Shown: positions 43,728 through 58,346 of the stretch, piece by piece
Numbering within the stretch: position 1 is the first letter of the stretch
Layout: each line of letters begins with the position of its first letter
NCBI GenBank assembly: GCA_050943415.1
Contig: JBMNPD010000003.1
Coordinates: 3,962 to 67,961, forward strand
DNA length: 64,000 bases
Origin: Candidatus Dojkabacteria bacterium
Lineage (GTDB): Bacteria > Patescibacteriota > Dojkabacteria > SC72
Direction: 5' to 3'
Notes under the pieces: model-generated
Seen by the model: only the letters and a program-made list of their open reading frames with translations
Database searches by the model: none
Told to the model about the DNA's origin: nothing
Program-made: the position numbers and the translations under genes

Positions 43728-44903
43728 TTAAATCTTTTTTAGATATCTTGATACTATCCAACCTTCTGATTCTAATCCAAACTTTACTCTACACCAACCA
43801 TCTTTTTCTTCTAAAAGTATGAAAACTGAGCCTTCATCAACAGTTTCTAAAATTTTACAACTACTCCACTGACACTCTCTAATATTTACAAATCCATACT
43901 TTGGAGATACTACTTCTACTAATGAATTATCTCCTTTTACAATATTCAACACAATATCAAATGAAGAATCTTCAAAAGGCTGATCGTTAAATTTAAGAAG
44001 AACAAAAGACTCTTTCGCTTCTCCTATTTTAACTTTAGCCTCCATTTCAAATGATAGTTCAACACTTTCATTTGGTAGTATAACTTTGTCAGAGATACTT
44101 ACTGGCCTACTAAAACTCTCCCAAACTTGATTAATTGCAAATCCACTATTTTTCCCACTTGCAGTTGCAATATATATAGGGTCTTTATCTGTAAACCATA
44201 CAAAATCATTCATATTTGTTACAGTTAAAGTAACTTTTGATCTTTCCAATACTTTTACTTCTTTTGAATACTGTAAGTTCTCTATTTTAGCTTTATATTT
44301 CAGATCATTTACTTTTTTCCCTTTCCAATCAGAAAAAAGTTCTTTGACTGATTTTAAAAATTCACCTGTAGCTGGTTTGAATGAAATAGCTGAAATATCT
44401 TTATCATTCTTTTTAATATCCAAAGTTATTGCCTCTATTTCAGTAATATTCCACTTAGTAGATAGTTCATCTACTATTTCTTTAAGAGAAGATTTTGCTC
44501 TACTGGTCATTACTGGATTATTTGATAGGTAACCAATTAGAATTACTCCATTAGCACCTTCTATACCTGCATCCGCTTCTATATATCCTGATTTTCCTTG
44601 ATAGATCAAACCACTTTCATCTAAGAGATATGTGTATGGCAAATCTCTCAAATGTAATCTTGTGATAGAGTAGTAGTAGAGAAATTTAACCCATTTAGCA
44701 GGATCTCTAGAAAGTACAGGAGATACTGTATTTACAGGTGTTACCAATATTTTGTTTGGTTCTGAATATGTTTGAGAAGTTTTATCTAAAAGTGATGTGT
44801 CGAATTTTTGTGAAGTAACTGAGTAAAAAGAGAAAGCATCTACTACAGACGGAAGTGATAACATAATTATTACTAAAAAAATCGATAATAGGAATTTTTT
44901 CAT
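43728..44903 (-). CDS. Secreted protein with a C-terminal bacterial SH3 (SH3b) domain and a possible degenerate Amidase_2/PGRP-like N-terminal domain
   Basis: Signal peptide MKKFLLSIFLVIIMLSLPSVVDA. DLPYTYLLDESGLIYQGKSGY resembles the PGRP DIGYNFLIGxDGxVYEGRGW region. C-terminus GFVNIRECQ..CKILETVDEGSVFILLEEKDGWCRVKF is an SH3b domain. Confidence 0.5.
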   Translation of the reverse strand: MKKFLLSIFLVIIMLSLPSVVDAFSFYSVTSQKFDTSLLDKTSQTYSEPNKILVTPVNTVSPVLSRDPAKWVKFLYYYSITRLHLRDLPYTYLLDESGLIYQGKSGYIEADAGIEGANGVILIGYLSNNPVMTSRAKSSLKEIVDELSTKWNITEIEAITLDIKKNDKDISAISFKPATGEFLKSVKELFSDWKGKKVNDLKYKAKIENLQYSKEVKVLERSKVTLTVTNMNDFVWFTDKDPIYIATASGKNSGFAINQVWESFSRPVSISDKVILPNESVELSFEMEAKVKIGEAKESFVLLKFNDQPFEDSSFDIVLNIVKGDNSLVEVVSPKYGFVNIRECQWSSCKILETVDEGSVFILLEEKDGWCRVKFGLESEGWIVSRYLKKI

Positions 44904-44950
44904 GCTCTTATTGTACCATCTATTTAGATGATTTGGGATATTTTTAATTT

Positions 44951-45967
44951 TTACTGTTCTTCTAACAAATATGGAACAGGAAGATCTCCTTCATCTTCAA
45001 TCTCACTTTTCTCTAAGAATTCTTCTGAAACAGCACAGATATAGTAATTGATAGTTGCCAGATATTCATTCCCTACAAAATCTTTTACCTTAACATCTGA
45101 ATTGATTATATATGCAGGGAATATATATCCGTGTGAGAAATTTTTGAATAAATATGTAGAGACAAGCTGTTTAGGATCATCTTGAACTATTTCTATAGAG
45201 GACTGCTGTATTGGATTTTTTTCATAATAGCTCTCATTTATACTCATATACTTGCCAAAAATCCTCTTTGTATTTATAAGATTTTTAGGATTCACAGGAA
45301 GATATGCAGAGTATTTAATAATTGACGATGTGTCATAAAGAAAGATATTAAACTGATATAGATTACCTGAGCTATCTACAAGAAGTTTGTACGCATCTGA
45401 ATCTATTTCAAGAGAACCAAACCGAAAATCTCCAATACTATATTTTCCTGAATATATATAATTACCATCAGAATCTTTGGAAACATTAATTTCATCAACC
45501 TGACAATTAAAATAATCTCTAAAGAAGTCTACAACAGCGTTTTGGTCTACAATTTTTATTCCTAAATCTGTTTTCTCACGAGAAGTTAGACTTAAAATAC
45601 CCATATCATAATTGTATCCAACTAAAACTGTACCAAAATTCCAACTAGCAGAGTATTCTGATTCAGCAATTTTAGTAAAATCTGGATTCAACTTTTCAAT
45701 TAAATCTTCAATTGATGCCTTACTTGCTTTGATTCTATATACAGGGACATATTCATTTTGAAAAAGTGACTGTTTAGATGGTATTGTTTTTATACTGTAT
45801 ATATTCTGAGCTACAAATGGTTCAACAAATACTTTATTATTAACTATAGAAGAAGCACGTTGCTCTTTTTTATGTTTGGCAACAAGAAGAAAAATTGTAA
45901 CAAGGACCAGTCCTAGAATTACTCCTGCTAGAATAAACCATTTGTATTTTTTAAAAAAGTTTTTCAT
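44951..45967 (-). CDS. Membrane-anchored (signal-anchor) extracytoplasmic protein, function unknown
   Basis: I prefer the start at the second Met (MKNFFKKYKWFILAGVILGLVLV) at 45967. The track start at 46042 would overlap the upstream gene. Confidence 0.5.
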   Translation of the reverse strand: MKNFFKKYKWFILAGVILGLVLVTIFLLVAKHKKEQRASSIVNNKVFVEPFVAQNIYSIKTIPSKQSLFQNEYVPVYRIKASKASIEDLIEKLNPDFTKIAESEYSASWNFGTVLVGYNYDMGILSLTSREKTDLGIKIVDQNAVVDFFRDYFNCQVDEINVSKDSDGNYIYSGKYSIGDFRFGSLEIDSDAYKLLVDSSGNLYQFNIFLYDTSSIIKYSAYLPVNPKNLINTKRIFGKYMSINESYYEKNPIQQSSIEIVQDDPKQLVSTYLFKNFSHGYIFPAYIINSDVKVKDFVGNEYLATINYYICAVSEEFLEKSEIEDEGDLPVPYLLEEQ

Positions 45968-45974
45968 ATTTAGA

Positions 45975-48500
45975 TTATCTACAAAAACGAATAGAAGACG
46001 CAACCATGCTACCACATGCACTTGATACGGCCCCTCCAACATTTCGAGCTAAATCAGCGAGTTCTCCTTCAGAGCAACCTCTAGAAAGGAAGTATGATTT
46101 TGTCGAAGTTGCAGTTACACACTGTCCATCTACCATGAATTTGTAATGTCCACCATTGCCTGAAAGTAAATCTGCTCCCCATTCACGTACTACAGACGGA
46201 GCTCCTCCCCCATTTCTTCCTTGTACTTGATGTAGAAGTTCATGAGTAAATAGTTTTGAAAGAGTGACATTAGATTGCTTAGCTAACTTATCACCTTTAC
46301 AATAAATTTTATCAGCACTGTAACACCACGCCCAGTCAATACTAGCACACATACGATGTCCAGGACATGTGACAAGTTCTAACTTAGTTCCAAGTCCCAT
46401 ACTTGCTGCTACTTGGTCATAAATTTCCTCTATTGATCCAGAAAAGATTGGAACATCAGCATCTAGATCTTCAAAAAAGAAGTCTCCTCTTCCACTATCA
46501 AATATACTAAACCCCTCACAAGTAACTACTTCTACAGGAGAGATATGGGAATTTACAGATAAAAATGCAGAACTTCCAAAAATAAACTTGAAGAAAAGTA
46601 CCATTACAAGTAATACCCCAACAGAAACAAAAGCTAATGTCTTGGTTACTGCTTTCATTGTTGGCTCTGCTAACTTTGTAGCAACTCTCGTAGCAGTACC
46701 TGTTGCAATATTTCCAACTATATTCCCCAATGGCCCACCAACAACACTCCCTATGACACGATTTATTGCCTTTCCTAATAGCTGCATACCACCTTTTTCT
46801 ACCCATTCTTTTAAAATCTCTCCGGCAAATTTCTTGAATGCATCACTTTGAATTAGAAGATTAGCAATCTGTTCTCTAGATTTCCTTCCTATCTTTGAAT
46901 CAAAATACATTGACACTTTGTTTTGCCATCGTTGGATAGTATTAAATCGATATGCTAAATTACTTAATCTCTCATTCTTTTTTATAAATTCAATTAAAGC
47001 TTGGGCCTGTTCTTGAGAGAGTATTGATAAGACACTCTCCATATATGCGTCATTTATCTTTCCTTTGTCGTTATATAGTCTAGTCATATCAAATCCTTGA
47101 ATACTATTCCCAAACTTATTTTGAAATTTATTCATATTTTCGTAGACTTGGTAGGCATATAGCTCTCCATTCATTAAAGATTTAACACGTACAAGAGGGA
47201 TCCTATAATAGAATTTAAGCAACCGTTCATTAAATCTTTGAGCATATTGTGATCTCGATGTTTTTGCTATTTTGAAATTAATATCTGCTCCGTTAATATT
47301 AATCTTGTTAAACCCACGCACTCCACCTTCACTTAATGTTCTGCTTGCTCCATAATCTACGGGATTGAACCAATGTTTATTTGAACGATTAAAGAAGTTT
47401 CCTGTTATGAAAAGATCACCTGCTTGAATTTGACCAGTACCCTTAAGAGAAGACCAGAAACCATCCATCCTACCGGCAAAAGCTGCAGCTCTCATACTTC
47501 CTGACATACTTCTATTTGCATACATTAATTTTATTTCCTTTTCTAACGCTTTTATTTTCTCTTTTTTATTTGGATCATTACTGTTTTTTAATCTGTTAAC
47601 CTCGTCTTTATATCTTCTAATCTCCATACTATTTTTCCGTTCACTTGTTTTTCTTTGTTCATTCGTTAATGAAGAATCTATATATCGCCGCGAAAGATAA
47701 TAATTTTGTGCCTTTAACATATCACCAGCACTTTCTGCTTCTACTGCCTTGTCACGTATTTCTTGACCCTCAACAAAGACATATACATTTTTGTCATATA
47801 ATAAAGACTTTTTTTCTTTTGTATCTTTTGCTTTCTCTATCCAATTCTTATATTCACCGAATTTTTTTTTAGCTTCTTCTTCTGAACCGTATCTCTCTAT
47901 GAAGTCTGCCAAGGTATATGATTTATTTGGATCTATTAAATGCTTATCTATTAATTGCTCTATCCTTTCTTCTGTACTTATCGCTTTAGCAGAATCAAAG
48001 TTTTCTATTTGCTTCAATCTATCAAATGCTCCATGTAGGTTTGACATAGCTAGAACTGTTTCCTTATCCAATCCATGTTTTTTAGCCCACATACTACCTA
48101 GCAACGCCTGTATTTCATCACCAGCCCAGAAAGCTTTGTTAACTTTTCTGTTCGCTTCATATTTTGTAAATGTTTTATCTAAGAAGCCTGTAGGATCTTT
48201 TAATGCTTTTGGTATATCTTTGGCATTGAGCTTCACTTTATTCCGTTTTCCTTCTCCGTATTTAACACTAAGTAAATCGTAGTTAACAACATCTTCAAAT
48301 GCGTCCATTGTTGATTTGTTTACAAACAGGAGAGGATTTTCAAGTGTAGCAACAAGAGCATCTGCAAATTCAGAGGTACCATCTATGCCTGTGACCTTTA
48401 CTGGTTTAACCTTTGCAGGATGTTTTTTTGTTTCTGCAAAAATAAAATCATATATGGAACCCAAAGCATCTTTATACTGTTTAGGTTTCTCTTTAGCCAT
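45975..48500 (-). CDS. Large bitopic protein (841 aa): about 620-aa cytoplasmic region, one TM, about 190-aa Cys-rich extracytoplasmic domain with an HExxH motif
   Basis: No signal peptide. TM at LAFVSVGVLLVMVLFFKFIFG. C-terminal domain has LFTHELLHQVQGRNGGGAPSVVREWGADL, i.e. HExxH plus a downstream Glu, which is gluzincin-like, and 10 or more Cys. No Walker motifs. Confidence 0.5.
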   Translation of the reverse strand: MAKEKPKQYKDALGSIYDFIFAETKKHPAKVKPVKVTGIDGTSEFADALVATLENPLLFVNKSTMDAFEDVVNYDLLSVKYGEGKRNKVKLNAKDIPKALKDPTGFLDKTFTKYEANRKVNKAFWAGDEIQALLGSMWAKKHGLDKETVLAMSNLHGAFDRLKQIENFDSAKAISTEERIEQLIDKHLIDPNKSYTLADFIERYGSEEEAKKKFGEYKNWIEKAKDTKEKKSLLYDKNVYVFVEGQEIRDKAVEAESAGDMLKAQNYYLSRRYIDSSLTNEQRKTSERKNSMEIRRYKDEVNRLKNSNDPNKKEKIKALEKEIKLMYANRSMSGSMRAAAFAGRMDGFWSSLKGTGQIQAGDLFITGNFFNRSNKHWFNPVDYGASRTLSEGGVRGFNKININGADINFKIAKTSRSQYAQRFNERLLKFYYRIPLVRVKSLMNGELYAYQVYENMNKFQNKFGNSIQGFDMTRLYNDKGKINDAYMESVLSILSQEQAQALIEFIKKNERLSNLAYRFNTIQRWQNKVSMYFDSKIGRKSREQIANLLIQSDAFKKFAGEILKEWVEKGGMQLLGKAINRVIGSVVGGPLGNIVGNIATGTATRVATKLAEPTMKAVTKTLAFVSVGVLLVMVLFFKFIFGSSAFLSVNSHISPVEVVTCEGFSIFDSGRGDFFFEDLDADVPIFSGSIEEIYDQVAASMGLGTKLELVTCPGHRMCASIDWAWCYSADKIYCKGDKLAKQSNVTLSKLFTHELLHQVQGRNGGGAPSVVREWGADLLSGNGGHYKFMVDGQCVTATSTKSYFLSRGCSEGELADLARNVGGAVSSACGSMVASSIRFCR

Positions 48501-48512
48501 ACTTTAATCAAA

Positions 48513-49871
48513 CTATTTAAACATACTACCAATTAATGGTATTCCTGACAGACTTGTTTTGACGGCAGTTGCTGTGTCTCCTACTTGTTTTGACACTGTA
48601 GGAGGAACTATGACAGCTGCCATAGCAGGAGCATTTGCAGCAGCGTATATTGCAACTATTTTAACAACTGCAAGCATAAATCCACCAACCTTTCCATCTA
48701 CAGCTTCTTCACCCGCTAATGATGTTGGAAATGCCAATGTTATTCCTTTTGACTCTGCATAATAAGGTAGGTTAACAATTGCATATGCTATCGGGAAAAC
48801 TAATACATTTCTTAAAGCGGACTTAAATATATTTATAGTTGATGCTTCATTGCCTGGTAATGCACCAGCAAATATAGCCAATGGAGCAAATATTACACTC
48901 ATTATTATTCCTAAATATGCTTTTAAAAGAGTAATCCAAAGCTTTACCATACCCCAGAAGACAATTCCTATGGGAATTAAAGTTAACAAAAGACCAATGA
49001 TACCAACTGTGGTAGCAGTCCCACTTTTAAACACACCCGCGATTGTAAGTATAACAGTGACTAAAGAATTAGTACCAGAAAACAATTTAAAAGTAAAACC
49101 TGTCTTACTAAAGAAATTACCAAACATGGTAATTGGATTCGTTATCTTCACTCCTTCACCCATTTCAGGACCTCCATATAGCAAAATCTGAACAAGCTTC
49201 ATAATGAGGGCTCCAATGTCTATAATCAAACCTATGATTGCAAAACTAAATGTTACAAGTACCAAAGCTACAACTACTTTAGGGATAGAATTACCTACAG
49301 TAACCATTATCTGACCTCCTATCTTATGTCTAAACATAATCATAAAACCAATAGCTATCATTATTACTACAAATCCTGTATACGCTATATTTCTAGTAGT
49401 CATCCACAGGACATCCACTTTCGAATTTCGTAAATCTGTATATCCTGCAGCGTATGTACTATTAGAATCCGCATATCCAGGTACCCACTGTTGTGCCAAA
49501 TGAGCAGGAACATCTACAGTTGGGACACTATTAAACAAGGAATATACTGCTTTCTCACTTGTTTCTAACAGACCCATTTTTGCAGAATCTGGAATAGTAG
49601 GATCATTCATAACTCTCTCCCCTCCTCTTGTACACGAAGGACAAGTTTCCATTAACATAGTTTCTAAACCACCATAGATTTGTTTAGCTATGAATTGTGA
49701 AATATTTTCACCCTTAACATCCGCGAATTTTTCTACTTTGTCTATTAGTTCAACCCAACCTGCAGTAGTATCTAGTACCTCTACTTCCTGAGCATAGGCT
49801 GTTTCTGAAATTGTACTAAATAGAAGAAACGAAAACAGAAAAGTTATAATCAATTTCTTTAGTTTAATCAT
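48513..49871 (-). CDS. Polytopic membrane protein with a cleavable signal peptide and about 130-aa extracytoplasmic N-domain; VirB6/TrbL-like topology
   Basis: Signal LIITFLFSFLLFSTISETAYA, a CPSC-containing soluble domain, then about 7 TM helices. The family assignment rests on topology only. Confidence 0.4.
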   Translation of the reverse strand: MIKLKKLIITFLFSFLLFSTISETAYAQEVEVLDTTAGWVELIDKVEKFADVKGENISQFIAKQIYGGLETMLMETCPSCTRGGERVMNDPTIPDSAKMGLLETSEKAVYSLFNSVPTVDVPAHLAQQWVPGYADSNSTYAAGYTDLRNSKVDVLWMTTRNIAYTGFVVIMIAIGFMIMFRHKIGGQIMVTVGNSIPKVVVALVLVTFSFAIIGLIIDIGALIMKLVQILLYGGPEMGEGVKITNPITMFGNFFSKTGFTFKLFSGTNSLVTVILTIAGVFKSGTATTVGIIGLLLTLIPIGIVFWGMVKLWITLLKAYLGIIMSVIFAPLAIFAGALPGNEASTINIFKSALRNVLVFPIAYAIVNLPYYAESKGITLAFPTSLAGEEAVDGKVGGFMLAVVKIVAIYAAANAPAMAAVIVPPTVSKQVGDTATAVKTSLSGIPLIGSMFK

Positions 49872-49895
49872 TTACTCTTAATAATAATTTATATT

Positions 49896-51350
49896 TTACA
49901 ATTTATAATATTTAGAAGACCTTTTAATAGCTTCCTGTGTTACTCTCCAATACTTATCAAAATTAGATGGGAAATCCTGCCCGGGAGCACTATCTGTTTT
50001 GCTTTGAAAGAACCTTAACATTGTAGGTGAATCATCCCATAAGCACCACACACCAATTTCTAAACGTGTTTCTACTACTATTGCTTTACAGGGTGTAGCA
50101 ACAAAGTGCATCAAGGAATCTTCTGAATTACTAGATATTACTTTTTTCTTAGATGCTTGCTGAGGAGAAAGAGTTGCCTTATGTAGATATGTCATAGCTG
50201 CTGTAGCACAACCTTCAGCTTCACACTCATATGGATCTCCAAATATTGAAGACATTTCAATCATTATATTTACTGGTCCAGTACAATCTCCTGTAGGACC
50301 AACATCTTCACAATCTTCATCTCCTTCTTCGCATTTTATACCGTGACAAGCATTCCATTCTGCTCTACTAAATGAATCCTCAAATACTCCTTTAATTCTA
50401 GCAACAATTTTCCAACACGCAGTTTCTAGGCCGTAATTCATTTCTGTTCTTAGATTCCCAACATCTAAGCAGCCATCTTCTGGTTCTATATCATACTTAT
50501 CTCCTCCTGGTATTTGTTGACGCCAATATAGTCCATCTTCATTATCAGAAGCCACATAGTTACTTTTGCCACCATTAAAATCCGATACGGCTACTTCTGG
50601 AGCACAAAATGTTTTCGGATCATGATCAGCATTTTTGATAATATACTCTCCTGATTCTAAAAGTTCAGTTATCTTTGGGTAAGCAATGAGTGATCCCTTA
50701 ACCATGAATTGCTGTCTTACTGTACCATCTATATTCTTTCGAAAAGTTTCTGCTTCTTTTGGTGCAAGAGCTCTACTTTGAGCAGCTTCGTCCAACACTT
50801 CTCCACTAGAATTGTAAGAAGGATCCCTAGAAGTAATTGTTTTTGTACTATTTTCAAAACCATCTTGACCTAACCAATATCCTAATGGATAAGTTACTTC
50901 TACTAATTGTATCTCTGCATCTTTATCGACAATGACATCTCCACCTACTACCGTACCATCTTTGTAGTCAATAGTACCAGTACCATCTGAACATAAAAGA
51001 GTATCTGATTCTAGTCGATTTGCCACGCTATAACCTCTTTTGCATGACCAAGCTGTTCCCCTGCCCACTATACTACTGGACCCTAAAACAACTTCTGTAA
51101 TATCTACTGTTTCCGAAGCAGGTAGTATCGTAACCTTCATACCATTTTCTTCTGGAAGTATCTTTTCTTCTACTACCTTAGATTTTACTCCACCACAACT
51201 TGTACATTCTTCTGTAGATATTACTTTTATCTCAGTAGCCTTTGTTCCTATATTGATTCTGTTTGTAATTTTTACAACAAAGAAAGAAAACGTTACTAAC
51301 ATTATTAAGAAATAGAGACCTTTTTTGTTTTTTCTTCTTGGTTGCATCAT
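49896..51350 (-). CDS. Secreted Cys-rich protein (484 aa), unknown function
   Basis: N-terminal anchor/signal LYFLIMLVTFSFFVV, more than 20 Cys, an acidic Cys cluster EEGDEDCEDVGPTGDCTGP...YECEAEGC. Confidence 0.5.
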   Translation of the reverse strand: MMQPRRKNKKGLYFLIMLVTFSFFVVKITNRINIGTKATEIKVISTEECTSCGGVKSKVVEEKILPEENGMKVTILPASETVDITEVVLGSSSIVGRGTAWSCKRGYSVANRLESDTLLCSDGTGTIDYKDGTVVGGDVIVDKDAEIQLVEVTYPLGYWLGQDGFENSTKTITSRDPSYNSSGEVLDEAAQSRALAPKEAETFRKNIDGTVRQQFMVKGSLIAYPKITELLESGEYIIKNADHDPKTFCAPEVAVSDFNGGKSNYVASDNEDGLYWRQQIPGGDKYDIEPEDGCLDVGNLRTEMNYGLETACWKIVARIKGVFEDSFSRAEWNACHGIKCEEGDEDCEDVGPTGDCTGPVNIMIEMSSIFGDPYECEAEGCATAAMTYLHKATLSPQQASKKKVISSNSEDSLMHFVATPCKAIVVETRLEIGVWCLWDDSPTMLRFFQSKTDSAPGQDFPSNFDKYWRVTQEAIKRSSKYYKL

Positions 51351-53218
51351 AGATTATTAACCATTTTACCTTTATATCTCTTATTTTTGCCTGATTTAAA
51401 GTATATTACACTTCCCACAACAATTAAAGTAAAAGATGCTAACAAAGCGTAAATCATATCCTCTACCACTCCCGTTTTTGGTATTGAGCCACTTGTAGCA
51501 GTAATGTTTTCATTTGATGTTGTCGATATTGACGGATTGCTTACAGGTAAAGATGATCCATCTGTTGCTCCAACTATACCGTAATTTGTTAATTTTGGAA
51601 TTTTACTTGTAGATGTACTTGTTGGAATTGATGATATATCTTTCAGATCTACATCTATATCTATACTTTCCACATCTTTCATCGTTGTTGTTTGTGTTTT
51701 AACATCAAATGTTGTCATTATATCCAAAGTTATTCTATCTGGAGATGTATATTCAAAATATTTAGTACCATCTTCACTCCAACTGTTTGATACTGTTAGG
51801 GTAAATAGGCCAGCATCTCCTATTAGTGTAGCAATCGGAAGACTTTTACCTAATGTACCAGTTTCGTCAGTATCTTCTATACTTGCTATCAAAATTCCTT
51901 CTCCATGTGATGGCATGTTGCTAAATTTTCCTTTTATGCTCTTAAATGCAGGAGGTGAACTTAATGTTGCAAACGAGTCTATACTGTATTTAGCACCGTT
52001 ATTATCGTAAGTATTTTGTCCTGATTTTATTTCATAGTAATATGTTGTTTCTGGTTGTAGCTTTGATACATCAACATAGTGTACATAGTATTCTCCTTGT
52101 GATACTAAACCATCTCTAGTATCTTTAGCTGTACTGTTTAAGTTTGACTTACTTGTTCCATAATTTACAGATCCTTTTTCTTTTTCTTTTGAAACCCAGA
52201 TCACTGTAAATCCAGTATCTGTAAGATTCGTTACTTTTACACTCTTCTCTCCTGTAACTGTAGTTGTTACTGGTGATACTGCCTTAGTAGAGAGATTTTC
52301 CCAAGGTAATTGGTGAACTATTCTGTATATCCTTTTAAAAGTTTCTTCCTTTGGTTCAGGAGTTGGTGCAGGCGTGGGGGTTGGCGCTGGTCTAGGAACG
52401 GGTGTTGGTGTAGGAGTCGGTATCTCGTCATATGCAACTAGTTTTGCTCCATCAGGTATAAACGAATACATATCTGTTCTTTCTGCCAATGCTAGAGTAT
52501 TTGATGCTGTTAATTGTCCATCGTTATTAAAGAGTGATGAATATACCCCTTCTACTACTGCTCCTCTATTTGTTTCTGAGATTGCTACTATGGTTATGCT
52601 CGTAGTATTTGAGATTGTAACTAGACTTTTATCAGAGATGCTTCTTAAGGATGCTAGATCTATCAACCAAGTTCCTTTGTCTTCTTTTACTACAGCAGAG
52701 ACAGGGTATGTTGATTTGTCACTTAGTATTGCATAGATTATTGGGTTGTCTCCTGATTTCATTGTAATAGATCCAAATATTGGGTGTGGTGTTACTTGTT
52801 GTGGTGTAATAGATGGTGTGGTGAATGTGAACTTTTTACCTCCTTGTGCTGCATATTTGTCTGTCCCAGAAAGAATTGTAAAATCATATGTAGTGCCTTG
52901 TTCTAGGTTATCTACAGTTACATAGTGAGTTAGTTTTCTTCCTGAACCTCTTGTGTCTGTTACTTGTGATTTTTGTGTTCCGTTTTGGTATACAATTACA
53001 CCTCCTGTTAGTGGTGAGTCTGTTATCCATGAAATGTTTATGGAATTGGTAGTTATATCACTAACTACTACATTTTTTGGTTGTGTGTCAGCTGAAGCGT
53101 TGATAATTATTTGAACCACCTTGTATGTTGCAAACAGTAGTATTGGTAATCCTATGATGAGGATTGTTAATACTATATTGTTTTTAGTTCTTCTCTTAGG
53201 AAGTTGAGCAATTTTCAT
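51347..53218 (-). CDS. Cell-surface protein with two FN3-like domains, a Pro/Thr linker and a C-terminal sortase-type sorting signal (IPKTG)
   Basis: FN3-like VVVSDITTNSINISWITDSPLTGGVIVYQ...TTYDFTIL and VTNLTDTGFTVIWVS...TTYYYEIK. Linker PTPTPTPVPRPAPTPTPAPTPEP. C-terminus SIPKTG + VVEDMIYALLASFTLIVVGSVIYF + KSGKNKRYKGK is a tripartite sorting signal. Confidence 0.6.
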   Translation of the reverse strand: MKIAQLPKRRTKNNIVLTILIIGLPILLFATYKVVQIIINASADTQPKNVVVSDITTNSINISWITDSPLTGGVIVYQNGTQKSQVTDTRGSGRKLTHYVTVDNLEQGTTYDFTILSGTDKYAAQGGKKFTFTTPSITPQQVTPHPIFGSITMKSGDNPIIYAILSDKSTYPVSAVVKEDKGTWLIDLASLRSISDKSLVTISNTTSITIVAISETNRGAVVEGVYSSLFNNDGQLTASNTLALAERTDMYSFIPDGAKLVAYDEIPTPTPTPVPRPAPTPTPAPTPEPKEETFKRIYRIVHQLPWENLSTKAVSPVTTTVTGEKSVKVTNLTDTGFTVIWVSKEKEKGSVNYGTSKSNLNSTAKDTRDGLVSQGEYYVHYVDVSKLQPETTYYYEIKSGQNTYDNNGAKYSIDSFATLSSPPAFKSIKGKFSNMPSHGEGILIASIEDTDETGTLGKSLPIATLIGDAGLFTLTVSNSWSEDGTKYFEYTSPDRITLDIMTTFDVKTQTTTMKDVESIDIDVDLKDISSIPTSTSTSKIPKLTNYGIVGATDGSSLPVSNPSISTTSNENITATSGSIPKTGVVEDMIYALLASFTLIVVGSVIYFKSGKNKRYKGKMVNNL

Positions 53219-53266
53219 TATGAAATATGATACCTTTTAATGGAGTCTGTGACAATGTTCCTCTAT

Positions 53267-53554
53267 TTATTCTTTTTCGGTAGTATCTTTTTTGATTCCA
53301 GTGATTATTCCGTTTACCACAGATATTGCTGCTCCTATCCCTCTTACTGGTTTTATTATTAGTGTATTTATTTCGTTTAATGTTTCTGTTATGGATGTAA
53401 TTGATGTTTGTAGGTCTTTGATTATGGGTTCTGTTTTTGATACTGTATCTCTGCTTTCTTTAAGTAGCATTGCTAAGTAGTAGAGTACTACACATAGCAT
53501 TATTGTTAGTATTGATACTATTATCATCCAAAATATTGGTGGTACTGTTTCCAT
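53267..53554 (-). CDS. Small bitopic membrane protein (95 aa)
   Basis: N-terminal TM IFWMIIVSILTIMLCVVLYYLAMLL, then a polar helical tail. Confidence 0.45.
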   Translation of the reverse strand: METVPPIFWMIIVSILTIMLCVVLYYLAMLLKESRDTVSKTEPIIKDLQTSITSITETLNEINTLIIKPVRGIGAAISVVNGIITGIKKDTTEKE

Positions 53555-53577
53555 TGTTTTTCAATTTAACAAGTTAT

Positions 53578-56500
53578 TTACATACTTTTACTGTTAGCAC
53601 ATTTACCATTATGTGTTCCTCCTTCATGCCAGAGAAGGGAACCACAGTTGGTATCTTTTGGTTCGAATTTGTTAATACGGATGAAGTAGCCATTACTAGA
53701 ACTGATGGGGTAATCGAATCCGTATTCTTGACCATCGGTTAGTTGTAAGCCTTCGTATTTACCTTTAGAAGTGGGCCACCATGAGATGTTGTTAGCTGTT
53801 AAACCTTCTACTTTGTTGATACTATCTAACAAACTACGTGCGGTATATATCTGTGAATAACCGTGAACACCTACTAAGTTCCAACCTGCACTAAGGTTTA
53901 TTGGAACACTGCTAGTTATTTTATGACCAGGTATACTTACTTCAGTGGTATTAGTTGTATATATGAGATAGCCTCTACCTGGAGTTACACTGAAGTCTTC
54001 GCCTGTAACTTCTCCATTTACATATCCAATACCTTTCCATCTACCGTCAGAGAAGTAAGAGAAGTGTTCAACTCGAGCTCCTTTGTTAATTAACCATTTA
54101 AGTAGACTAGATGCCTTGGTATATTCATCGTCATCTAGTTTAGGTATGTAATCAAAGGATATGAGGTTGACTCCTTGTTTAAGGTTGAGGGTCATTACAT
54201 CTGCACTTTTTTTGTATTTGATATCTAAAGCATCTGATTTTAGTACATAGTCTTCTCCTACTTTAGGGTTGTCAGGATCTGCAGGGAATTGGAGACCGGC
54301 TACACCATTCATTTCAATATAGAAGATACGAAGATTGTTTTCTCCTCCTTCTACTTTTTCATTTTCAATTAGACCATTTACTTCCATATCATAGAAACCG
54401 TATTCTGGAAGATATGTGATGTAGCCACTACCTGTAGCATTTATTTCTGAAGATTGATCATTAACACCAAGGACAGAGTCAGAAATACCATGAGCATCCC
54501 CTTTATCTTGGACTAAAGGTTTACCTAAGCAATCTACAAACTCATCATCACTCTCTTTTGTACATTCGGTAAATCGTTTACTAAGGGAAGTTACTGCTTC
54601 AATTCTTTCGCTAACAAGAGAAGAAACTGTTGTAGGATTATTACTATCTCTTGCTTGTTGGATAGAATTGTTAAGCGCTAAAACTTCTTCTCCTGCAGTA
54701 TTCGACAGATATGTAATTAAAACGTTATAATTTTCAACATAACCATCAGGTGTGGTAACAGACTTTAACTTGATTTCTATTGGTTCTTGATCATATTTAC
54801 ATTCGATAACAATATTATCACAAGCATCTTTTTCACAGACAACCTCTTTAAACGCCATAATCTTTTGTATTTCCTCATTTGTTAAAATTTTACTTGGTTT
54901 GTCTGTCTCTTTCCCGTCATCTTGTACAATCTCTGTTGTTTGACCATTTTGTGCAACCTCCTCTTTGTTAATAAAACCACAATCTTGTCTCTCACCTGCT
55001 TTACAATCATTATACTTAATTACATTTTTATTATGATTTTCTCTTAAAATACTCAACTCTTCAAGAGTAATTTTGTCCTTTTCTAGAAGTTCAGAAAAAG
55101 CTACACCTAAATTAGGATATGACTCCAATTCTATTGTTTCCTTTAACATATCAGAATTTACATTTTTAAGGTCAAGATCAAATGTACCATTATCATTGTA
55201 TACTAAAACCATATCTTTATCCCCTACTTTAAAAGGTATTTGTTTCTTATCATCAACAACAGTTTCTATACTTTCTTTCTGTAAGTTGAAAAAATTATCT
55301 ACTGCTTCTTCACTGTATTGATTGCTAGTTAATAATTTTGAAGCAAACTCCGTACGATACACAATATTTTTTGATTGAATTTTTATACTACACCAATTTT
55401 CAAATTGACTGCCAATACATACAGTACAATCTCCACCACATTGTTTTTTAATGACGTTTTGAGTTTCTTTATCAAAAATATCCAACGACAATCCATCAAT
55501 TGTAAAATCCCCTTTTTCATCCGTTTTAACATCTGCAACCCTATAAGGTTGTTTTCCACTCTCTGTTATAGCGGCTATACTTACACATTTACCTCCATTA
55601 CAAACTTGACCACTTCCACATTGAACACCTGCACAAGCATCATATGCACCGATCTGAATAGGTTTACCTGGAGTTATATATATAGGTTTATAAGTACAAA
55701 CATTATTTTTATCACATTTTTCAATAGTTTCCCTTACTGTCACATTATCACTTTGTGTATTATATCCAGCAATTGCATTCGCATTTCCAACAAGGACTGT
55801 CTGCTTCATTGCTGGATCCATATTATTATTGCCTGCAAGACCCATATAATCTAACACTGCATTATCTATTACCCCTCCTTTTTCATTAGCTAACAACCTT
55901 GCAACATTTCCGTATCCTATTTCCTTCATTTTTTCATCTGCTTTCTTTCTATATTCTGCAGCCTCTTCTTCACTTAAATTTTCATCATTAGCCTTCTCTA
56001 ATGCTTCGAACAATGGTGTTGTATGTGCTGGTGTAATCCAACTTGGAATATTAAATTTATTTGCAGGTTGAGTTTGAGAACTAGAAGTTTGTCCAGAAGA
56101 TCCTTCATCTCTTTGCTCTCCTTCTTCCGAATTATTAACTGTTCCAGTATCAACTGTATCAGTACCAGGTCCCCCTGATTCAAGAGAAACAACTGCTTCT
56201 TTATTGGTAGATTCTGTGACTTTATTATAAATAGCAGTCAACAAACCACTTGTTAATCCACCTAGAATGGTATTAGTAATTATCATATTAGTAGGAGTTG
56301 GTGTTTCATTATTTACATCTCCCTCCTCGTTCGCACGCACACTCTTAATAAAGTTATCCTCATTCATACTTAAATCCTTCTCCCATTCATCACTAACTAC
56401 TAGATCTGGATATGCTATTGAGCTATTTCCATAAACCCAATCATAGGGATCACTCAATGTATAGTTCTCATATTGTGCATACGCTTTAATCATATCCTGA

Positions 56501-57300
56501 CCCTCTTCTACTATTATTGGTTCTCCCTCTATTGTTCTAATGTTATTACCATCTAAATACCAACTACCATTATCTGCGGTAACACTACTGTAATATATTG
56601 ATTCTTTATCCAAATAACCATTTACAAACTTAATATATACTATTGAATCATTTACATAGTTTCCTTTATCATTAACTACCTTACCAAAGATAGGGGCCGG
56701 AGCTTTCACCTCTCTATTTAATGTATAGAAAGTTGCACTCTTGTTAATATCCTTCTTCCAACTAATCAAACCATCTCCTACTCTAAAGTAATACTCCTTG
56801 TTAGCATCCAAATTCTTTAATGTTACATGGTGTGTAAAATAATTACCAAATCTTCTTACCTTCACACTATCACAATCGTAGTTACTAGTATCTACTACAA
56901 AATCTTCACTAACCTTAGCTTTTTCGTTAAAATCGTCTACACATTTCTTCTCTGCTTTTGCTATATCCCTATCATCATAGGCCACATCTGCGCCTATCCA
57001 ACTTAAAGGACCAGGAAGAATGCTATCCTTCTCCTTATAATACACTACTCCTCGCATAGGATAGTTAGTCATCCAAGAGACTGTAAAAGATGTATCTGTG
57101 ACATTAGTTAATCTTACATCGTGTGGCTTGAAAAATATTGATAAAAATAGCTGAAAGCCTAAATACAACACTAACACTACACCCAACAGTATTCCAAAGA
57201 TTTTTGATACTTTCTTTAAAATTCTCTTTGCTTTCTCTCCTCTATACTTATTCTTATCAATATTTTCTGTATATGCAAAACCACTTATCTGATTATCCAT
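53578..57300 (-). CDS. Giant surface protein (1240 aa) with an N-terminal TM anchor, an FN3-like domain and multiple Cys-rich modules
   Basis: TM ILLGVVLVLYLGFQLFLSIFF. FN3-like LTNVTDTSFTVSWMTNYPMRGVVYY...KEYYFRV. Cys-rich GAYDACAGVQCGSGQVCNGGKCVS and CGGDCTVCIGSQFENWCS. Confidence 0.55.
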   Translation of the reverse strand: MDNQISGFAYTENIDKNKYRGEKAKRILKKVSKIFGILLGVVLVLYLGFQLFLSIFFKPHDVRLTNVTDTSFTVSWMTNYPMRGVVYYKEKDSILPGPLSWIGADVAYDDRDIAKAEKKCVDDFNEKAKVSEDFVVDTSNYDCDSVKVRRFGNYFTHHVTLKNLDANKEYYFRVGDGLISWKKDINKSATFYTLNREVKAPAPIFGKVVNDKGNYVNDSIVYIKFVNGYLDKESIYYSSVTADNGSWYLDGNNIRTIEGEPIIVEEGQDMIKAYAQYENYTLSDPYDWVYGNSSIAYPDLVVSDEWEKDLSMNEDNFIKSVRANEEGDVNNETPTPTNMIITNTILGGLTSGLLTAIYNKVTESTNKEAVVSLESGGPGTDTVDTGTVNNSEEGEQRDEGSSGQTSSSQTQPANKFNIPSWITPAHTTPLFEALEKANDENLSEEEAAEYRKKADEKMKEIGYGNVARLLANEKGGVIDNAVLDYMGLAGNNNMDPAMKQTVLVGNANAIAGYNTQSDNVTVRETIEKCDKNNVCTYKPIYITPGKPIQIGAYDACAGVQCGSGQVCNGGKCVSIAAITESGKQPYRVADVKTDEKGDFTIDGLSLDIFDKETQNVIKKQCGGDCTVCIGSQFENWCSIKIQSKNIVYRTEFASKLLTSNQYSEEAVDNFFNLQKESIETVVDDKKQIPFKVGDKDMVLVYNDNGTFDLDLKNVNSDMLKETIELESYPNLGVAFSELLEKDKITLEELSILRENHNKNVIKYNDCKAGERQDCGFINKEEVAQNGQTTEIVQDDGKETDKPSKILTNEEIQKIMAFKEVVCEKDACDNIVIECKYDQEPIEIKLKSVTTPDGYVENYNVLITYLSNTAGEEVLALNNSIQQARDSNNPTTVSSLVSERIEAVTSLSKRFTECTKESDDEFVDCLGKPLVQDKGDAHGISDSVLGVNDQSSEINATGSGYITYLPEYGFYDMEVNGLIENEKVEGGENNLRIFYIEMNGVAGLQFPADPDNPKVGEDYVLKSDALDIKYKKSADVMTLNLKQGVNLISFDYIPKLDDDEYTKASSLLKWLINKGARVEHFSYFSDGRWKGIGYVNGEVTGEDFSVTPGRGYLIYTTNTTEVSIPGHKITSSVPINLSAGWNLVGVHGYSQIYTARSLLDSINKVEGLTANNISWWPTSKGKYEGLQLTDGQEYGFDYPISSSNGYFIRINKFEPKDTNCGSLLWHEGGTHNGKCANSKSM

Positions 57301-57362
57301 AACACATGGCAGTCAAATTATATGTACATATATATAACTAAATCCAAGAGAAAAAGTCAAAC

Positions 57363-58346
57363 TTAATCATGGATTAACACATAATCACCTTTTTCAAAAA
57401 TACCATACAAATATTTTGCATCCTCTACTAGCATTCGTATACATCCACCACTAATCCGTTTACCAATATTACTTTCAGACTCTACCCACCTACTACCATC
57501 AGATCTGGGTATCCATATCAATCCGTGTAAACCATACCAAGTCGATTTAGTAGGTTCATAGTAAAACGCCATCCAGTAAGGCATATATTTATTACCTGGT
57601 GCTATCGGTTGTAAACCCTTATCCACTATCTTGAATACACCTCTTACTGATGAATCTTCTCTAGCACCTGAAAGGAATATTTCTCTAACAACTACACCAT
57701 CAATCCAGACATAAAGCTTTTGTTGAGTATTATCTACTTCTATATATTTGTATGCAAACTTTCCATCAGTTGAAGCTGTCATTATAGATGGAATCTCTAC
57801 AATTATGTCATGCTCACCACTACGATATTTAGTATTTAATGAATTGTAAACAACAGTATAATTAGGAACATACTCTGAAATTCTACTGAGGTATTCTCCT
57901 TTTGAGTTTTTGACTAATTCTTTTTTCGAATACAAAGGAGAAAAATATTTCTCTACATCTGAGTGCACCCATGTGTTAAATAGGTCTTTAGATATGTCTC
58001 CATCTTGAATCATCTTAAGAAACTTTTCGTTTTCTAACTTTTTGCAAAAATCCATATAACAGAAAAGAATATTGTAATTTGGACTATCTGTGACTCCAAC
58101 AACTTCTGTAGTACTAGCAGAAGCTACTGTAGGAATTAATGTCTCTACTTCCACCTCCTTTATATCCTCTTGTATGTATTTCACTAAATCTTCGTTCCTA
58201 TTCTTAGAAAGCATTAAAAGACCTATCAGTAACATTGCAAAGGACCAAATACACAAAACAAAAATAAGAAGATTCTTACTTTCCAACAATCCTTTAGAAA
58301 GAAATTTCATAGCAAATAATGTATATGAAAAAACCGTATATTTCAA
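57363..58346 (-). CDS. Membrane-anchored L,D-transpeptidase (YkuD domain) protein
   Basis: N-terminal TM. C-terminal YkuD catalytic motifs GLHGLIW and SGGCIRM (His/Cys dyad). Confidence 0.75.
   Translation of the reverse strand: MKYTVFSYTLFAMKFLSKGLLESKNLLIFVLCIWSFAMLLIGLLMLSKNRNEDLVKYIQEDIKEVEVETLIPTVASASTTEVVGVTDSPNYNILFCYMDFCKKLENEKFLKMIQDGDISKDLFNTWVHSDVEKYFSPLYSKKELVKNSKGEYLSRISEYVPNYTVVYNSLNTKYRSGEHDIIVEIPSIMTASTDGKFAYKYIEVDNTQQKLYVWIDGVVVREIFLSGAREDSSVRGVFKIVDKGLQPIAPGNKYMPYWMAFYYEPTKSTWYGLHGLIWIPRSDGSRWVESESNIGKRISGGCIRMLVEDAKYLYGIFEKGDYVLIHD

Follow-up and report, generated by a model that had tools for sequence, protein, structure and literature searches.

A conserved envelope gene array of Candidatus Dojkabacteria that may form part of a divergent T4SS-like apparatus

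In a 64-kb window, by which we mean the whole stretch of DNA analysed, from a Candidatus Dojkabacteria (CPR/Patescibacteria) bacterium, a class of ultrasmall bacteria, nine minus-strand genes form a compact array directed at the cell envelope. We propose, with a probability of roughly 60%, that this array encodes an unannotated and very divergent membrane, wall and surface module of a T4SS-like apparatus such as Patescibacteria have (monoderm, MPF-FATA-derived), with a VirB6-like channel protein and a partner bearing an exchangeable candidate wall-cutting enzyme at its core, and, as part of that explanation, that p3 to p9, with p2 in many lineages, make up a chromosomal operon passed on vertically in Candidatus Dojkabacteria. 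The array would then be a T4SS-derived module for wall breaching and adhesion, its ATPase presumably being encoded elsewhere.

Results

Nine co-directional genes at a fixed chromosomal site

Nine ORFs, p1 to p9, are present on the minus strand between 43728 and 58346 and are followed by a helicase gene:

57363-58346, minus strand: p1, L,D-transpeptidase of YkuD type, anchored by an N-terminal TM
53578-57300, minus strand: p2, 1240-aa surface protein, optional member of the cluster
53267-53554, minus strand: p3, 95-aa helical protein with a single TM, core
51347-53218, minus strand: p4, 623-aa surface protein with two FN3-type domains, core
51470-51484, minus strand: IPKTG motif of p4, residues 579-583, from the translation
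49896-51350, minus strand: p5, 484-aa Cys-rich protein, N-terminally anchored or secreted, core
48513-49871, minus strand: p6, 452-aa polytopic membrane protein, putatively of divergent VirB6/TrbL type
45975-48500, minus strand: p7, 841-aa bitopic protein, core
45978-46553, minus strand: p7 ectodomain, residues ~650-841, gluzincin-like HExxH...E domain
44951-45967, minus strand: p8, 338-aa protein, N-terminal TM and ~300-aa ectodomain
43728-44903, minus strand: p9, secreted protein with a PGRP/amidase_2-like N-domain, a beta-rich middle and a C-terminal SH3b domain, core
41720-43717, minus strand: pcrA/uvrD-type helicase (Pfam UvrD-helicase, 6e-93)

Recomputed from the coordinates, the gaps from p1 to p4 are 62, 23 and 48 nt, p4 and p5 overlap by 4 nt, the gaps from p5 to p9 are 24, 12, 7 and 47 nt, and pcrA follows p9 co-directionally 10 nt downstream; the co-directional layout and the junctions agree with the initial annotation (gaps of 7-62 nt, one 4-nt overlap, 10 nt to pcrA). 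The start of p8 is that of the 338-aa form, as gene callers choose in locus L001, and the longest ORF extends to 46042. No minus-strand terminator-like sites were found within the array. Housekeeping genes surround the cluster, whose place on the chromosome, with rsmE on one side and pcrA on the other, is fixed. A gene for an IS200-type transposase is found 3 kb away from the array.

Gene order is conserved across the class

Gene order in relatives had been named beforehand as the check on whether the array is a random accretion of surface genes. The order recurs in ~80 loci, each from a different species-level genome, and synteny proved very strong, which argues against accretion and for a conserved, envelope-directed unit, as first proposed. 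By tblastn, in loci with enough flanking sequence, p3-p4-p5-p6-p7-p8-p9-pcrA is collinear in 43 of 44 on the downstream side and in 52/52 on the upstream side. The downstream count refers to p6<p7<p9<pcrA; the 44th locus (L078) was recovered by HMM, such that p7 orthologs come next after p6 in 44/44 loci (43 by tblastn, L078 by HMM), while p9 is present in 44/44 with pcrA next after it in every one. Upstream, p3 and p4 orthologs are found in all 52 loci, an ortholog or same-position homolog of p5 is found throughout, and 49 loci have an ORF of 313-363 aa at the p8 position, flanked by p7 and p9. Identity of the fast-diverging p5, p7 and p8 drops to 20-30%, whereas pcrA holds 65-88%; order, orientation and spacing hold across 43-52 independent loci, even where protein identity is as low as 20-35%.

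The conserved unit is the seven genes p3-p9 plus pcrA. p2 is optional, occurring in 33 of the 52 loci with enough upstream sequence (about two thirds). The L,D-transpeptidase p1, which the initial annotation had counted as part of the unit, is present in just 2 of the 52 loci with enough upstream sequence (here at least 4.2 kb) and in 3/83 loci overall by tblastn; it is a lineage-specific addition, a recent neighbour adjacent to the conserved cluster and no component of it.

Surface and wall proteins

Most of the original domain calls were borne out, namely the Ldt of p1, the FN3 domains of p2 and p4, the IPKTG of p4, the SH3b of p9, the HExxH of p7 and the polytopic nature of p6. p1 matches YkuD (PF03734, E 5e-12, scoring 46.9 bits where the cut-off is 23.4), and its C-terminal region has an SGGCIRM motif that includes the catalytic Cys. 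p2 has one TM at 37-55 as an N-terminal anchor, an FN3-type Pur_ac_phosph_N domain (Pfam, 1.4e-9), 21 Cys, a long middle region with Cys residues and, at the C-terminal end, a conserved domain with the pattern YG.DFPIS..NGYFVRI...C.S..W..GG...G.CG. p3 has one TM at 7-25 and a weak, sub-threshold Pfam match to DUF948; it has no PrgI or VirB3 match.

p4 combines an N-terminal TM with an fn3 domain (4e-11) and a Pur_ac_phosph_N domain (7e-18; both Pfam), the two being separated by a Pro/Thr-rich linker. Its tail is built as in an LPXTG-type protein, with a pentapeptide (IPKTG, 579-583), a largely hydrophobic stretch of 24 residues and a basic end (KSGKNKRYKGK). The sorting signal reported earlier is therefore present, but it is restricted to one subclade: the motif [IT]P[KENQ]TG is common to 23 p4 orthologs there, and the [IT]PxTG tail is found only in forms of ~610-650 aa and is absent from the shorter forms of ~520-545 aa, which terminate in ...LLSDYGI. 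The p5 gene lies directly upstream of the VirB6-like p6 gene. Its product has 15 Cys, of which 7 are invariant and an 8th nearly so across 65 orthologs, and no relatives of p5 were found in Pfam or the PDB, even with a profile search.

p6 is a putative VirB6/TrbL-type protein

p6, the best-conserved gene of the cluster, encodes a polytopic protein whose N-terminal part comprises a signal peptide and an ectodomain. Its predicted fold superposes best on TrwI (7o3v/8rt9) and DotA (9ngy), over 214-233 residues at 12-16% identity. The Pfam TrbL model PF04610 matches neither p6 nor 21 relatives even at E<=1, and 3 of 42 distant family members match it at E 5e-4 to 5e-3, under the 25.9-bit cut-off. 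In canonical T4SS loci of Patescibacteria, three distant members, P0265, P0253 and P0276 (profile E ~1e-47), sit immediately behind PF18895 T4SS pilin arrays and a gene for a giant protein, and P0265 is also near PrgI and a TraC-like VirB4. In the L087 locus, the genes that come next encode a 984-aa protein of N-cytoplasmic/TM/M23 layout, a bitopic protein of 334 aa, the VirB3-like PrgI and a TraC-like VirB4. p6 thus has the build of a VirB6-type polytopic membrane subunit, with family members inside T4SS gene clusters, and two independent fold searches and this genomic context agree with the earlier label "VirB6/TrbL-like". On its modelled fold and its family context, we take p6 to be a divergent VirB6/TrbL-type protein.

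p7 has an exchangeable ectodomain

p7 is predicted to be N-in/C-out, with a cytoplasmic helical N-domain of ~620 aa, one TM at 622-640 and a Cys-rich ectodomain of ~190 aa; it has no signal peptide and 9 Cys, and AF2 gives a poor, mainly helical model. The ectodomain carries HELLH at residues 753-757. In alignment it is swapped between lineages: of 45 orthologs, Pfam assigns Peptidase_M23 to 21 and CHAP to 2, and the remainder, the window included, are of the HExxH...E type. No PF01551 (HxxxD ... HxH) match was found in the window p7, nor any SLT-type VirB1 homolog among the hydrolase domains of its orthologs. H753, E754, H757, Q760 and E773 are invariant across 10 HExxH-type ectodomains; the sole matches, to the M9 collagenase zinc helix (ColH/ColG, E 0.2-0.9) and to eCIS_core (E 0.012-0.27), are weak and non-significant. 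Because the HExxH ectodomain occupies the position of the orthologs' M23/CHAP hydrolases, a wall-cutting role is plausible, in keeping with the initial suggestion of a possible metallopeptidase in wall remodelling, and the domain is a candidate wall-cutting enzyme.

Dojkabacteria have, in the same genomes, a second module near dnaA that comprises a 233-aa Cys protein, a VirB6-like protein and a p7-like protein without hydrolase. The p7 N-domain is homologous to this partner protein (hhalign probability 96.6%, E 5e-10) and otherwise matches nothing known. p6 and p7 are thus a functional pair that occurs twice in these genomes.

p8 and p9

p8 is fast-evolving, with its position and size kept and no invariant column in the alignment. 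It has the topology, size and position of a VirB8-like bitopic protein, without a sequence signal for VirB8, and Pfam, profile searches of the PDB and hhalign against the 334-aa protein of L087 gave no relatives. At the sequence level, no homology was detected between p7 or p8 and the proteins of like build beside virB4 in that locus.

p9 matches SH3_3 in Pfam (1.3e-7), and its profile also matches lysozyme SH3b at 1.2e-5. A profile of 48 orthologs further matches PGRP-SD (1.2e-4), PGRP-I-beta (3e-4) and ~20 further PGRP/amidase chains, a likeness that Pfam alone missed. Of the earlier description as SH3b/amidase-like, the SH3b domain and a PGRP/amidase_2-like fold stand and the amidase enzyme does not, there being no His or Cys among the invariant or near-invariant columns of residues 1-200 that could supply conserved zinc ligands. 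The N-domain looks like a binding domain rather than an enzyme, and p9 is a probable wall anchor.

ATPase, pilin and sortase genes

Neither a VirB4- nor a VirD4-type ATPase, nor a VirB3/PrgI, was found among the Pfam-scanned ORFs of the 64-kb window, the larger of which are housekeeping genes or have no Pfam hit. PF18895 VirB2-like pilin arrays are absent from cluster and window, and the sortase TLxTC motif is absent from all genuine window ORFs of at least 100 aa, so the Pfam scan and the motif search both bear out the first impression that the window has no VirB4/VirD4, pilin or sortase. Among the called genes around p6 homologs and paralogs in the Dojkabacteria loci examined, there was no VirB4, VirD4/coupling protein, VirB3/PrgI, VirB2-like pilin or sortase within 10 kb of either VirB6-like module. 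To our knowledge, VirB4 is a hallmark of every T4SS. Two Dojkabacteria genomes are listed as VirB4-positive in Table S1 of a recent survey (PMC12102498), and from this published presence we infer that a VirB4-type ATPase is encoded elsewhere in the genome.

Discussion

How might such a module work? We propose that p6 forms an oligomeric membrane platform or channel, as its VirB6-type fold and family context suggest, and that p7 docks on its cytoplasmic side via the conserved N-domain and positions a peptidoglycan hydrolase outside the membrane, where it would open a wall. This may be the wall of the cell itself, as the apparatus assembles, or that of a host where the two meet. With its PGRP-like and SH3b domains, p9 may bind peptidoglycan and so fix the complex in the wall. 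More speculatively, p5 could be a distal or tip component, analogous by position to VirB5 or IcmX, and p8 has the position and topology that a VirB8-like bitopic scaffold would have. The anchored, FN3-bearing p2 and p4 may mediate contact with a partner cell, like the adhesins of Gram-positive conjugation, and energy would come from the VirB4-type ATPase encoded elsewhere. Several findings count against a T4SS reading: there is no VirB4 in cis, p7 and p8 lack homology to the L087 proteins, no known family matches p3, p5, p8 or the p7 N-domain, and the housekeeping neighbourhood is one that a core cell-envelope function would have.

That last point leads to the alternative that survives best, if an unlikely one: an autonomous housekeeping machine of the envelope that serves the growth or remodelling of the wall, division or the anchoring of a surface layer, and in which a VirB6-like scaffold has been co-opted with no role in secretion or on a host. 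Wall-directed domains do dominate (M23/CHAP/HExxH, PGRP-like, SH3b and, in this lineage, Ldt), the cluster is universal in the class at its rsmE-pcrA site, and the lack of an ATPase in cis would be as expected. But the p6 family occurs inside bona fide T4SS loci of other Patescibacteria, large FN3 surface proteins, and the speed at which p5, p7 and p8 diverge, fit an interaction surface better than core wall synthesis, and the hydrolase domain is swapped between lineages.

It is less probable again that the array encodes a stand-alone attachment and wall-lysis organelle working without a T4SS ATPase, with the p5-p6-p7 core as a passive conduit or, on a host cell, a lytic anchor. One operon does combine extracellular hydrolases with adhesin-like proteins and domains that bind peptidoglycan, and neither of the two paralogous p6/p7 modules has VirB4 within 10 kb; against this, no host is known for the lineage, and every characterised VirB6 that we know of works with VirB4. 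Dojkabacteria genomes are, moreover, reported to encode VirB4 (PMC12102498).

A non-functional remnant of a prophage or integrative conjugative element, with p6 ConG/TcpH-like and p7 either tape-measure-like or CwlT/PrgK-like, is very improbable and is largely refuted by the class-wide fixed synteny, the site being identical across ~80 divergent genomes. With its long helical region, hydrophobic segment and, in orthologs, C-terminal M23, p7 resembles tape-measure proteins and Gram-positive conjugation hydrolases; the transposase gene nearby would also fit. Yet the nine proteins have no PHROG matches, there is no integrase, relaxase, capsid or tail gene, the genes are all intact, and the array does not differ in GC content from the remainder of the window. 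The idea that unrelated surface-protein genes came together by chance, favoured solely by the lack of recognisable families for p3, p5 and p8, is refuted by the conserved order, orientation and spacing and deserves almost no weight.

Comparison with known systems

The proposed T4SS-like module has likenesses to four kinds of known system. The p9 N-domain profile matches ~20 PGRP structures of the PGRP/amidase_2 family (e.g. Drosophila PGRP-SD, 2rkq) over the central beta-alpha core, but p9 lacks the conserved His/His/Cys zinc site and is fused to beta-rich middle and SH3b domains. With the VirB6/TrbL family (TrwI of R388; DotA of Legionella Dot/Icm) p6 shares the signal peptide, the N-terminal extracytoplasmic domain and the long TM-helix bundle; it differs in lacking a Pfam TrbL hit, no VirB5 homolog is recognised, and the host is monoderm.

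Gram-positive conjugation modules have gene orders such as PrgH-PrgK-PrgL with the adhesins PrgB/PrgC in pCF10, ConG-CwlT in ICEBs1 and TcpH-TcpG-TcpC in pCW3. Like the array, they combine a VirB6-like polytopic protein, an anchored multidomain wall hydrolase (a candidate in the array), a bitopic protein of ~330-360 aa and LPXTG-type wall-anchored adhesins. As far as we know, they always have an adjacent VirB4 and coupling protein and are located on mobile elements. Their hydrolases are SLT/CHAP/NlpC proteins with an N-terminal TM, whereas p7 has a 620-aa cytoplasmic domain, and no sequence homology of p7 or p8 was detected.

The closest comparison is with the patescibacterial T4SS, which is MPF-FATA-like (Quinonero-Coronel et al. 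2025, PMC12102498) and, according to reviews, essential in Southlakia epibionticum (PMC12857230, PMC11665869). The array differs from it in having no VirB4, TrsD, PrgI/VirB3, VirD4 or VirB2-like pilin array in cis, in adding the counterpart-less p3, p5 and p9 and the FN3 proteins p2 and p4, and in lying between rsmE and pcrA rather than beside virB4, with a second paralogous module near dnaA. In that survey VirB6 was HMM-detectable in only ~480 proteins from 3,035 genomes, "extreme sequence divergence" being suspected, and M23-domain wall hydrolases were found to occur in these systems (PMC12102498). What the two share is a monoderm CPR host, a chromosomal location and the lack of a relaxase; in L087, a large membrane-anchored M23-type hydrolase is followed by a bitopic protein of ~334 aa, an arrangement like that of p7 and p8. 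Above all, p6 belongs to a sequence family whose genes lie beside pilin arrays, PrgI and VirB4. The initial annotation had seen here a candidate undescribed system that matched no textbook one; that was overstated, since the p6 family ties the array to the monoderm-type T4SS already described in Patescibacteria (PMC12102498).

Gene array in the window

All nine co-directional minus-strand genes proposed in the initial annotation (p1 to p9, from 58346 down to 43728) are present as open reading frames, as judged by ORF calling and translation. For p8, a membrane-anchored protein, we take the start at 45967, which gives a 338-aa form and is the start picked by gene callers on the identical contig L001. 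With this form of p8 the junctions from p1 to p9 measure 62, 23, 48, -4, 24, 12, 7 and 47 nt. A terminator scan found no terminator-like sites on the minus strand inside the array, and a promoter scan was uninformative, returning fewer sites than shuffled sequence. Beyond p9 the array runs into pcrA, on which a G5-domain protein converges.

Genes following p9 in the window
41720-43717, minus strand: pcrA, separated from p9 by 10 nt
40775-41719, plus strand: 314-aa protein with a weak G5-domain match, convergent with pcrA

By tblastn, 45 of 83 loci (44 of 80 related species genomes) have a homolog of the G5-domain protein placed and oriented as in the window. The remainder of the 64-kb window is housekeeping: a ribosomal protein operon, EF-G, EF-Tu, PNPase, S15, RsmB and RsmE, as well as Tgt, QueA, Fmt, GlmS and RNase Y. 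As first proposed, no VirB4/VirD4-type ATPase is present among the scanned ORFs, and the window has no recognisable sortase, the TLxTC motif being absent from every genuine ORF of at least 100 aa. Between a TPR protein and the G5-domain protein lies a gene for a 174-aa IS200-like Y1 transposase domain protein (40026-40550, minus strand; Pfam Y1_Tnp, 1e-8), which is also found on the identical Logan contig L001. Outside the cluster, a protein of 479 aa (7271-8710, minus strand), matched to the CAP (cysteine-rich secretory protein) domain at E 1e-19, is a further secreted-protein candidate, and two minus-strand ORFs, at 62913-63827 (304 aa) and 6466-7263 (265 aa), have no Pfam match.

Conservation across relatives

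The closest homologs of p6, a VirB6/TrbL-like polytopic protein, are labelled Candidatus Dojkabacteria, and a scan of one genome per species returned 325 stretches with a p6 relative, nearly all of them from Dojkabacteria/WS6 MAGs, a group that abounds in anaerobic digesters. We mapped the window proteins by tblastn and ORF calling onto 80 of these 325 loci, counting downstream genes in the 44 loci with at least 8.5 kb past the p6 start and upstream genes in the 52 loci with at least 4.2 kb. p6, p7, p9 and pcrA are collinear in 43 of the 44 by tblastn, the last locus (L078) being recovered by HMM, and pcrA is the next co-directional gene after p9 in 44 of the 44 loci with enough sequence. This linkage may stem from functionally meaningful co-transcription or simply from the synteny of a compact genome. 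Upstream, p3 and p4 are both present in 52 of 52 loci. tblastn detects p5 in 41 of these 52 loci; the remaining ones have an ORF of the same size at its position, and these ORFs align, with seven invariant cysteines and an eighth nearly so. An ORF of 313-363 aa fills the p8 position between p7 and p9 in 49 loci, diverging so fast that the ortholog alignment has zero invariant columns. p2 occurs in 33 of 52 loci and the L,D-transpeptidase gene p1 in 2 of 52. The conserved order begins with rsmB and rsmE, pointing away from the cluster, continues with p2 (where present), p3, p4, p5, p6, p7, p8, p9 and pcrA in one direction, and ends with the G5-domain protein facing pcrA.

Protein identity drops as low as 20-35% in the cluster genes and holds at 65-88% in pcrA; gene order has therefore been held over a long divergence. 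A lack of synteny in relatives had been named at the outset as the sign of a random accretion of surface genes. The order is kept in relatives, which settles that the array is not such an accretion.

Some cluster-bearing records carry other taxonomic labels. 'Binchicken' co-assembly MAGs titled 'uncultured Candidatus Saccharibacteria bacterium' (L004, L010, L012-L014 and about 30 more) show a Dojkabacteria-type cluster and synteny, and for this reason the Saccharibacteria label is probably wrong. A few short cluster-bearing contigs are binned as Clostridia, Caldisericales, Prolixibacteraceae, Gammaproteobacteria or Lysobacteraceae, likely through mis-binning.

p6 and a divergent VirB6-type family

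p6 has a signal peptide and multiple TM segments in a hydropathy scan, and no sequence match in Pfam, NCBIfam or the PDB, even when 22 family members were scanned or a profile was used. Modelled with AF2 from 22 sequences, p6 comes out all-helical, at moderate confidence (pLDDT 68). When this model was searched with Foldseek, the top three matches were TrwI/VirB6 chains (probability 0.93-0.99, target TM about 0.5), with DotA sixth. Among 42 distant family members the commonest Pfam match is TrbL/VirB6, seen in 3 members at sub-threshold E-values of 5e-4 to 5e-3. On the contigs we inspected, each of three distant members comes directly after an array of PF18895 T4SS pilins plus a giant protein.

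Distant p6-family loci in other Patescibacteria
L087: 135-12004
L089: 2863-11902
L090: 1590-11845

In these loci the p6-family proteins (614-667 aa, without Pfam annotation) come after 4-6 PF18895 pilin genes and a 1178-1450-aa protein. L087 continues with a 984-aa protein (helical cytoplasmic N-domain, hydrophobic region, C-terminal M23), then an N-terminally anchored protein of 334 aa, the VirB3-like PrgI and a fragment of a TraC-like VirB4. We conclude that p6 is a member of a divergent VirB6-type family serving patescibacterial T4SS. Across 3,035 genomes, HMMs have picked up just 480 VirB6 proteins, and extreme divergence is suspected in some classes (PMC12102498). The p6 family is very large and unannotated, comprising 3,735 representatives of 50%-identity clusters in an exhaustive HMM search (E<=1e-3); it plausibly fills part of this detection gap, and many CPR T4SS loci may have their 'missing' VirB6 among its members. 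p6 contains just two cysteines, both in a CPSC motif (residues 77-80; window 49632-49643) of its N-terminal extracytoplasmic domain, CPxC being the majority consensus of the family, not invariant.

p7 and its exchangeable ectodomain

p7 has no signal peptide, a single TM segment at about residues 622-640 and a C-terminal domain outside, and its first ~620 residues are therefore cytoplasmic. The ectodomain differs between orthologs: Peptidase_M23 is found in at least 21 of 45, CHAP in 2, and 13, including the window, have a Cys-rich ectodomain with HE[LVM]xHxxQ ... (R)EWGA(D/E), the motif reading HELLH in p7 itself. H753, E754, H757, Q760 and E773 (window numbering) are invariant in ten HExxH-type ectodomains, a set that, read from the alignment, is the gluzincin active-site pattern. 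Database matches of this ectodomain are weak, to the zinc helix of M9 collagenases (E 0.2-0.9) and to eCIS_core/DUF4157 (E 0.012-0.27). A wall-hydrolase role is plausible for the window ectodomain on positional grounds, because the HExxH domain takes the place of two known classes of peptidoglycan hydrolase.

Enlarged CHAP-type p7 genes (about 1,165 aa), with CHAP in place of M23 or HExxH
L019: 5142-8651
L029: 11223-14711

In both of these loci the ORF after p7 is only 145-175 aa, as against the usual ~335 aa of p8. The AF2 model of p7 is poor (pLDDT 53), with a mostly helical N-domain, and we disregarded its Foldseek matches, which were generic helical bundles. p7 has no Walker A motif, a PDB sequence search with it gave no meaningful match, and hhalign of its profile against the 984-aa protein of L087 found no homology beyond the M23 HxH motif.

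A second, dnaA-proximal module

A paralogous module lies near dnaA-rnpA-yidD-yidC-jag. It was found via weaker p6 matches (L077, L083) and via a search of p6-family cluster representatives (P0192 in L085, P0213 in L092).

Loci with the second module
L092 (contig JBMNHA010000001.1): 7349-14709
L085: 9279-14254
L083: 1182-5557
L077: 654-5704

Wzy_C comes first, then a secreted protein of 233 aa that contains cysteines, then a single VirB6-like protein or a pair of them (589-878 aa), and last a protein of 626-771 aa; the 233-aa, VirB6-like and last proteins have no Pfam match. With hhalign, 130 residues of the last protein align with the N-terminal domain of p7 (probability 96.6%, E 5e-10); it also has a late TM segment as in p7, the hydrolase head being absent. 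The two modules are found together in single genomes (ACOX06_02100 and ACOX06_01410 on one 750-kb contig; L011 and L077 in one MAG) and share parts, so the triad of secreted Cys protein, VirB6-like protein and p7-like protein is the recurring core. No VirB4 lies within 10 kb of either module in the loci examined.

Surface proteins, p9 and orphan members

Most of the first domain calls hold up. p1 matches Pfam YkuD above threshold, and p2 and p4 each have a TM anchor first and an FN3-type domain straight after (Pfam); translation confirms HELLH in p7 and, in p4, an IPKTG motif ahead of a hydrophobic segment with a basic tail. This LPXTG-like tail is found only in the subclade containing the window, whereas other clades stop at a conserved ...LLSDYGI. 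p2, p5 and the ectodomain of p7 are all rich in cysteine. The C-terminus of p9 matches SH3b domains, as had been called, by both Pfam and profile search, and a profile of 48 p9 orthologs matches about 20 PGRP/amidase_2 structures over residues ~55-135 (best 1.2e-4). Because the ortholog alignment has no conserved His or Cys in the first 200 residues, the PGRP-like domain is probably peptidoglycan-binding and not catalytic. A G....GK[ST] string inside this domain is taken as coincidence.

A Pfam and NCBIfam scan of all nine proteins left p5-p8 without a match, profile searches with p5, p6 and p8 gave nothing meaningful, and all p5 and p8 orthologs, run against Pfam at lenient thresholds, returned scattered noise only. 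A Roadblock/LC7 match of p8 (E 0.003) was judged noise. A homolog search with p8 found 2 close relatives only, and hhalign of its profile against the 334-aa protein of L087 showed no homology. Neither the dnaA-proximal module nor the T4SS loci of other Patescibacteria gave any match to HMMs of p2, p3, p4, p5, p8 and p9. p3, p5 and p8 have no recognisable relative in these searches, and several cluster proteins are true orphans.

Interpretation

The analysis establishes the conservation and topologies, the VirB6-type fold and family context of p6, the existence of a paralogous module, the swapping of hydrolase domains, and the PGRP-like and SH3b domains of p9. We favor the reading, at a probability of roughly 0.6, that the cluster is a wall-spanning, host- or partner-facing module of Dojkabacteria T4SS-like machinery with its ATPase in trans. 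p2 and p4 would then mediate adhesion, p5 may sit at the tip, p8 could act as a scaffold, p7 would cut either the cell's own wall or that of a host, and the module would be coupled to VirB4.

The foremost competitor is a housekeeping wall-remodelling complex; the YkuD, PGRP-like and SH3b domains could belong to one, and we consider it unlikely beside the T4SS context of the p6 family. An attachment and lysis organelle independent of any ATPase would sit readily with the lack of a nearby VirB4, and seems to us distinctly improbable. Equally doubtful is a version in which the p5-p6-p7 triad is a self-contained, T4SS-descended machine independent of VirB4, a VirB6-based conduit driven or gated from the cytoplasm by a bitopic partner that cuts peptidoglycan via an exchangeable hydrolase head. 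Such a machine is thinkable because the triad occurs twice per Dojkabacteria genome, neither copy with VirB4 within 10 kb. If it were real, the invariant 10-nt linkage of the window copy to the PcrA helicase would hint at nucleic-acid traffic, for example host DNA or RNA taken up by an organism unable to make nucleotides. A mobile-element remnant is very hard to credit (none of the nine proteins has a PHROGs match, and a prophage origin was therefore dropped), and chance juxtaposition of genes whose order is so widely kept is harder still.

p5, p7, p8, p9 and the FN3 proteins are concrete candidates for parts that the T4SS has been missing, those that span the wall and touch the host. In a whole class, a VirB6-type gene travels with seven fixed partners, one of them with a modular wall-hydrolase head, and not with VirB4. 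Two paralogous modules per genome and hydrolase domains swapped between lineages offer a natural experiment on whether parts of the module can function independently of the ATPase. For research on Patescibacteria or T4SS, the cluster yields candidate envelope parts of an essential machine of unknown function.

Comparison with known type IV secretion systems

Most Patescibacteria have a chromosomal, relaxase-less T4SS whose VirB4 is nested in the monoderm MPF-FATA class (Quinonero-Coronel et al., PMC12102498). Its components frequently lie close to dnaA, homologs of VirB8 and VirB1 are seldom found, some VirB1 candidates have M23, and at least two Dojkabacteria genomes are scored VirB4-positive in Table S1 (PMC12102498). 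According to reviews, in the one species tested, Southlakia epibionticum, the T4SS is essential for epibiotic growth, its function being unknown (PMC11665869, PMC12857230). The cluster shares with patescibacterial T4SS a VirB6-type protein, a large anchored protein with a putative hydrolase domain, and a ~335-aa protein that is bitopic, and like Gram-positive conjugation modules it adds wall-anchored adhesin-like proteins. It stands apart from patescibacterial T4SS in that VirB4, VirB3, VirD4 and pilins are missing in cis, four to five of its conserved genes have no counterpart, and it is fixed beside pcrA. The initial annotation saw here a candidate for an undescribed system matching no textbook one; p6 ties the cluster to a recognised T4SS, on present evidence it is not categorically new, and the cluster as such is undescribed as far as the searched literature shows. 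Because VirB4, the defining component, is absent from the locus, we do not file it as 'a T4SS'; it is a T4SS-derived module.
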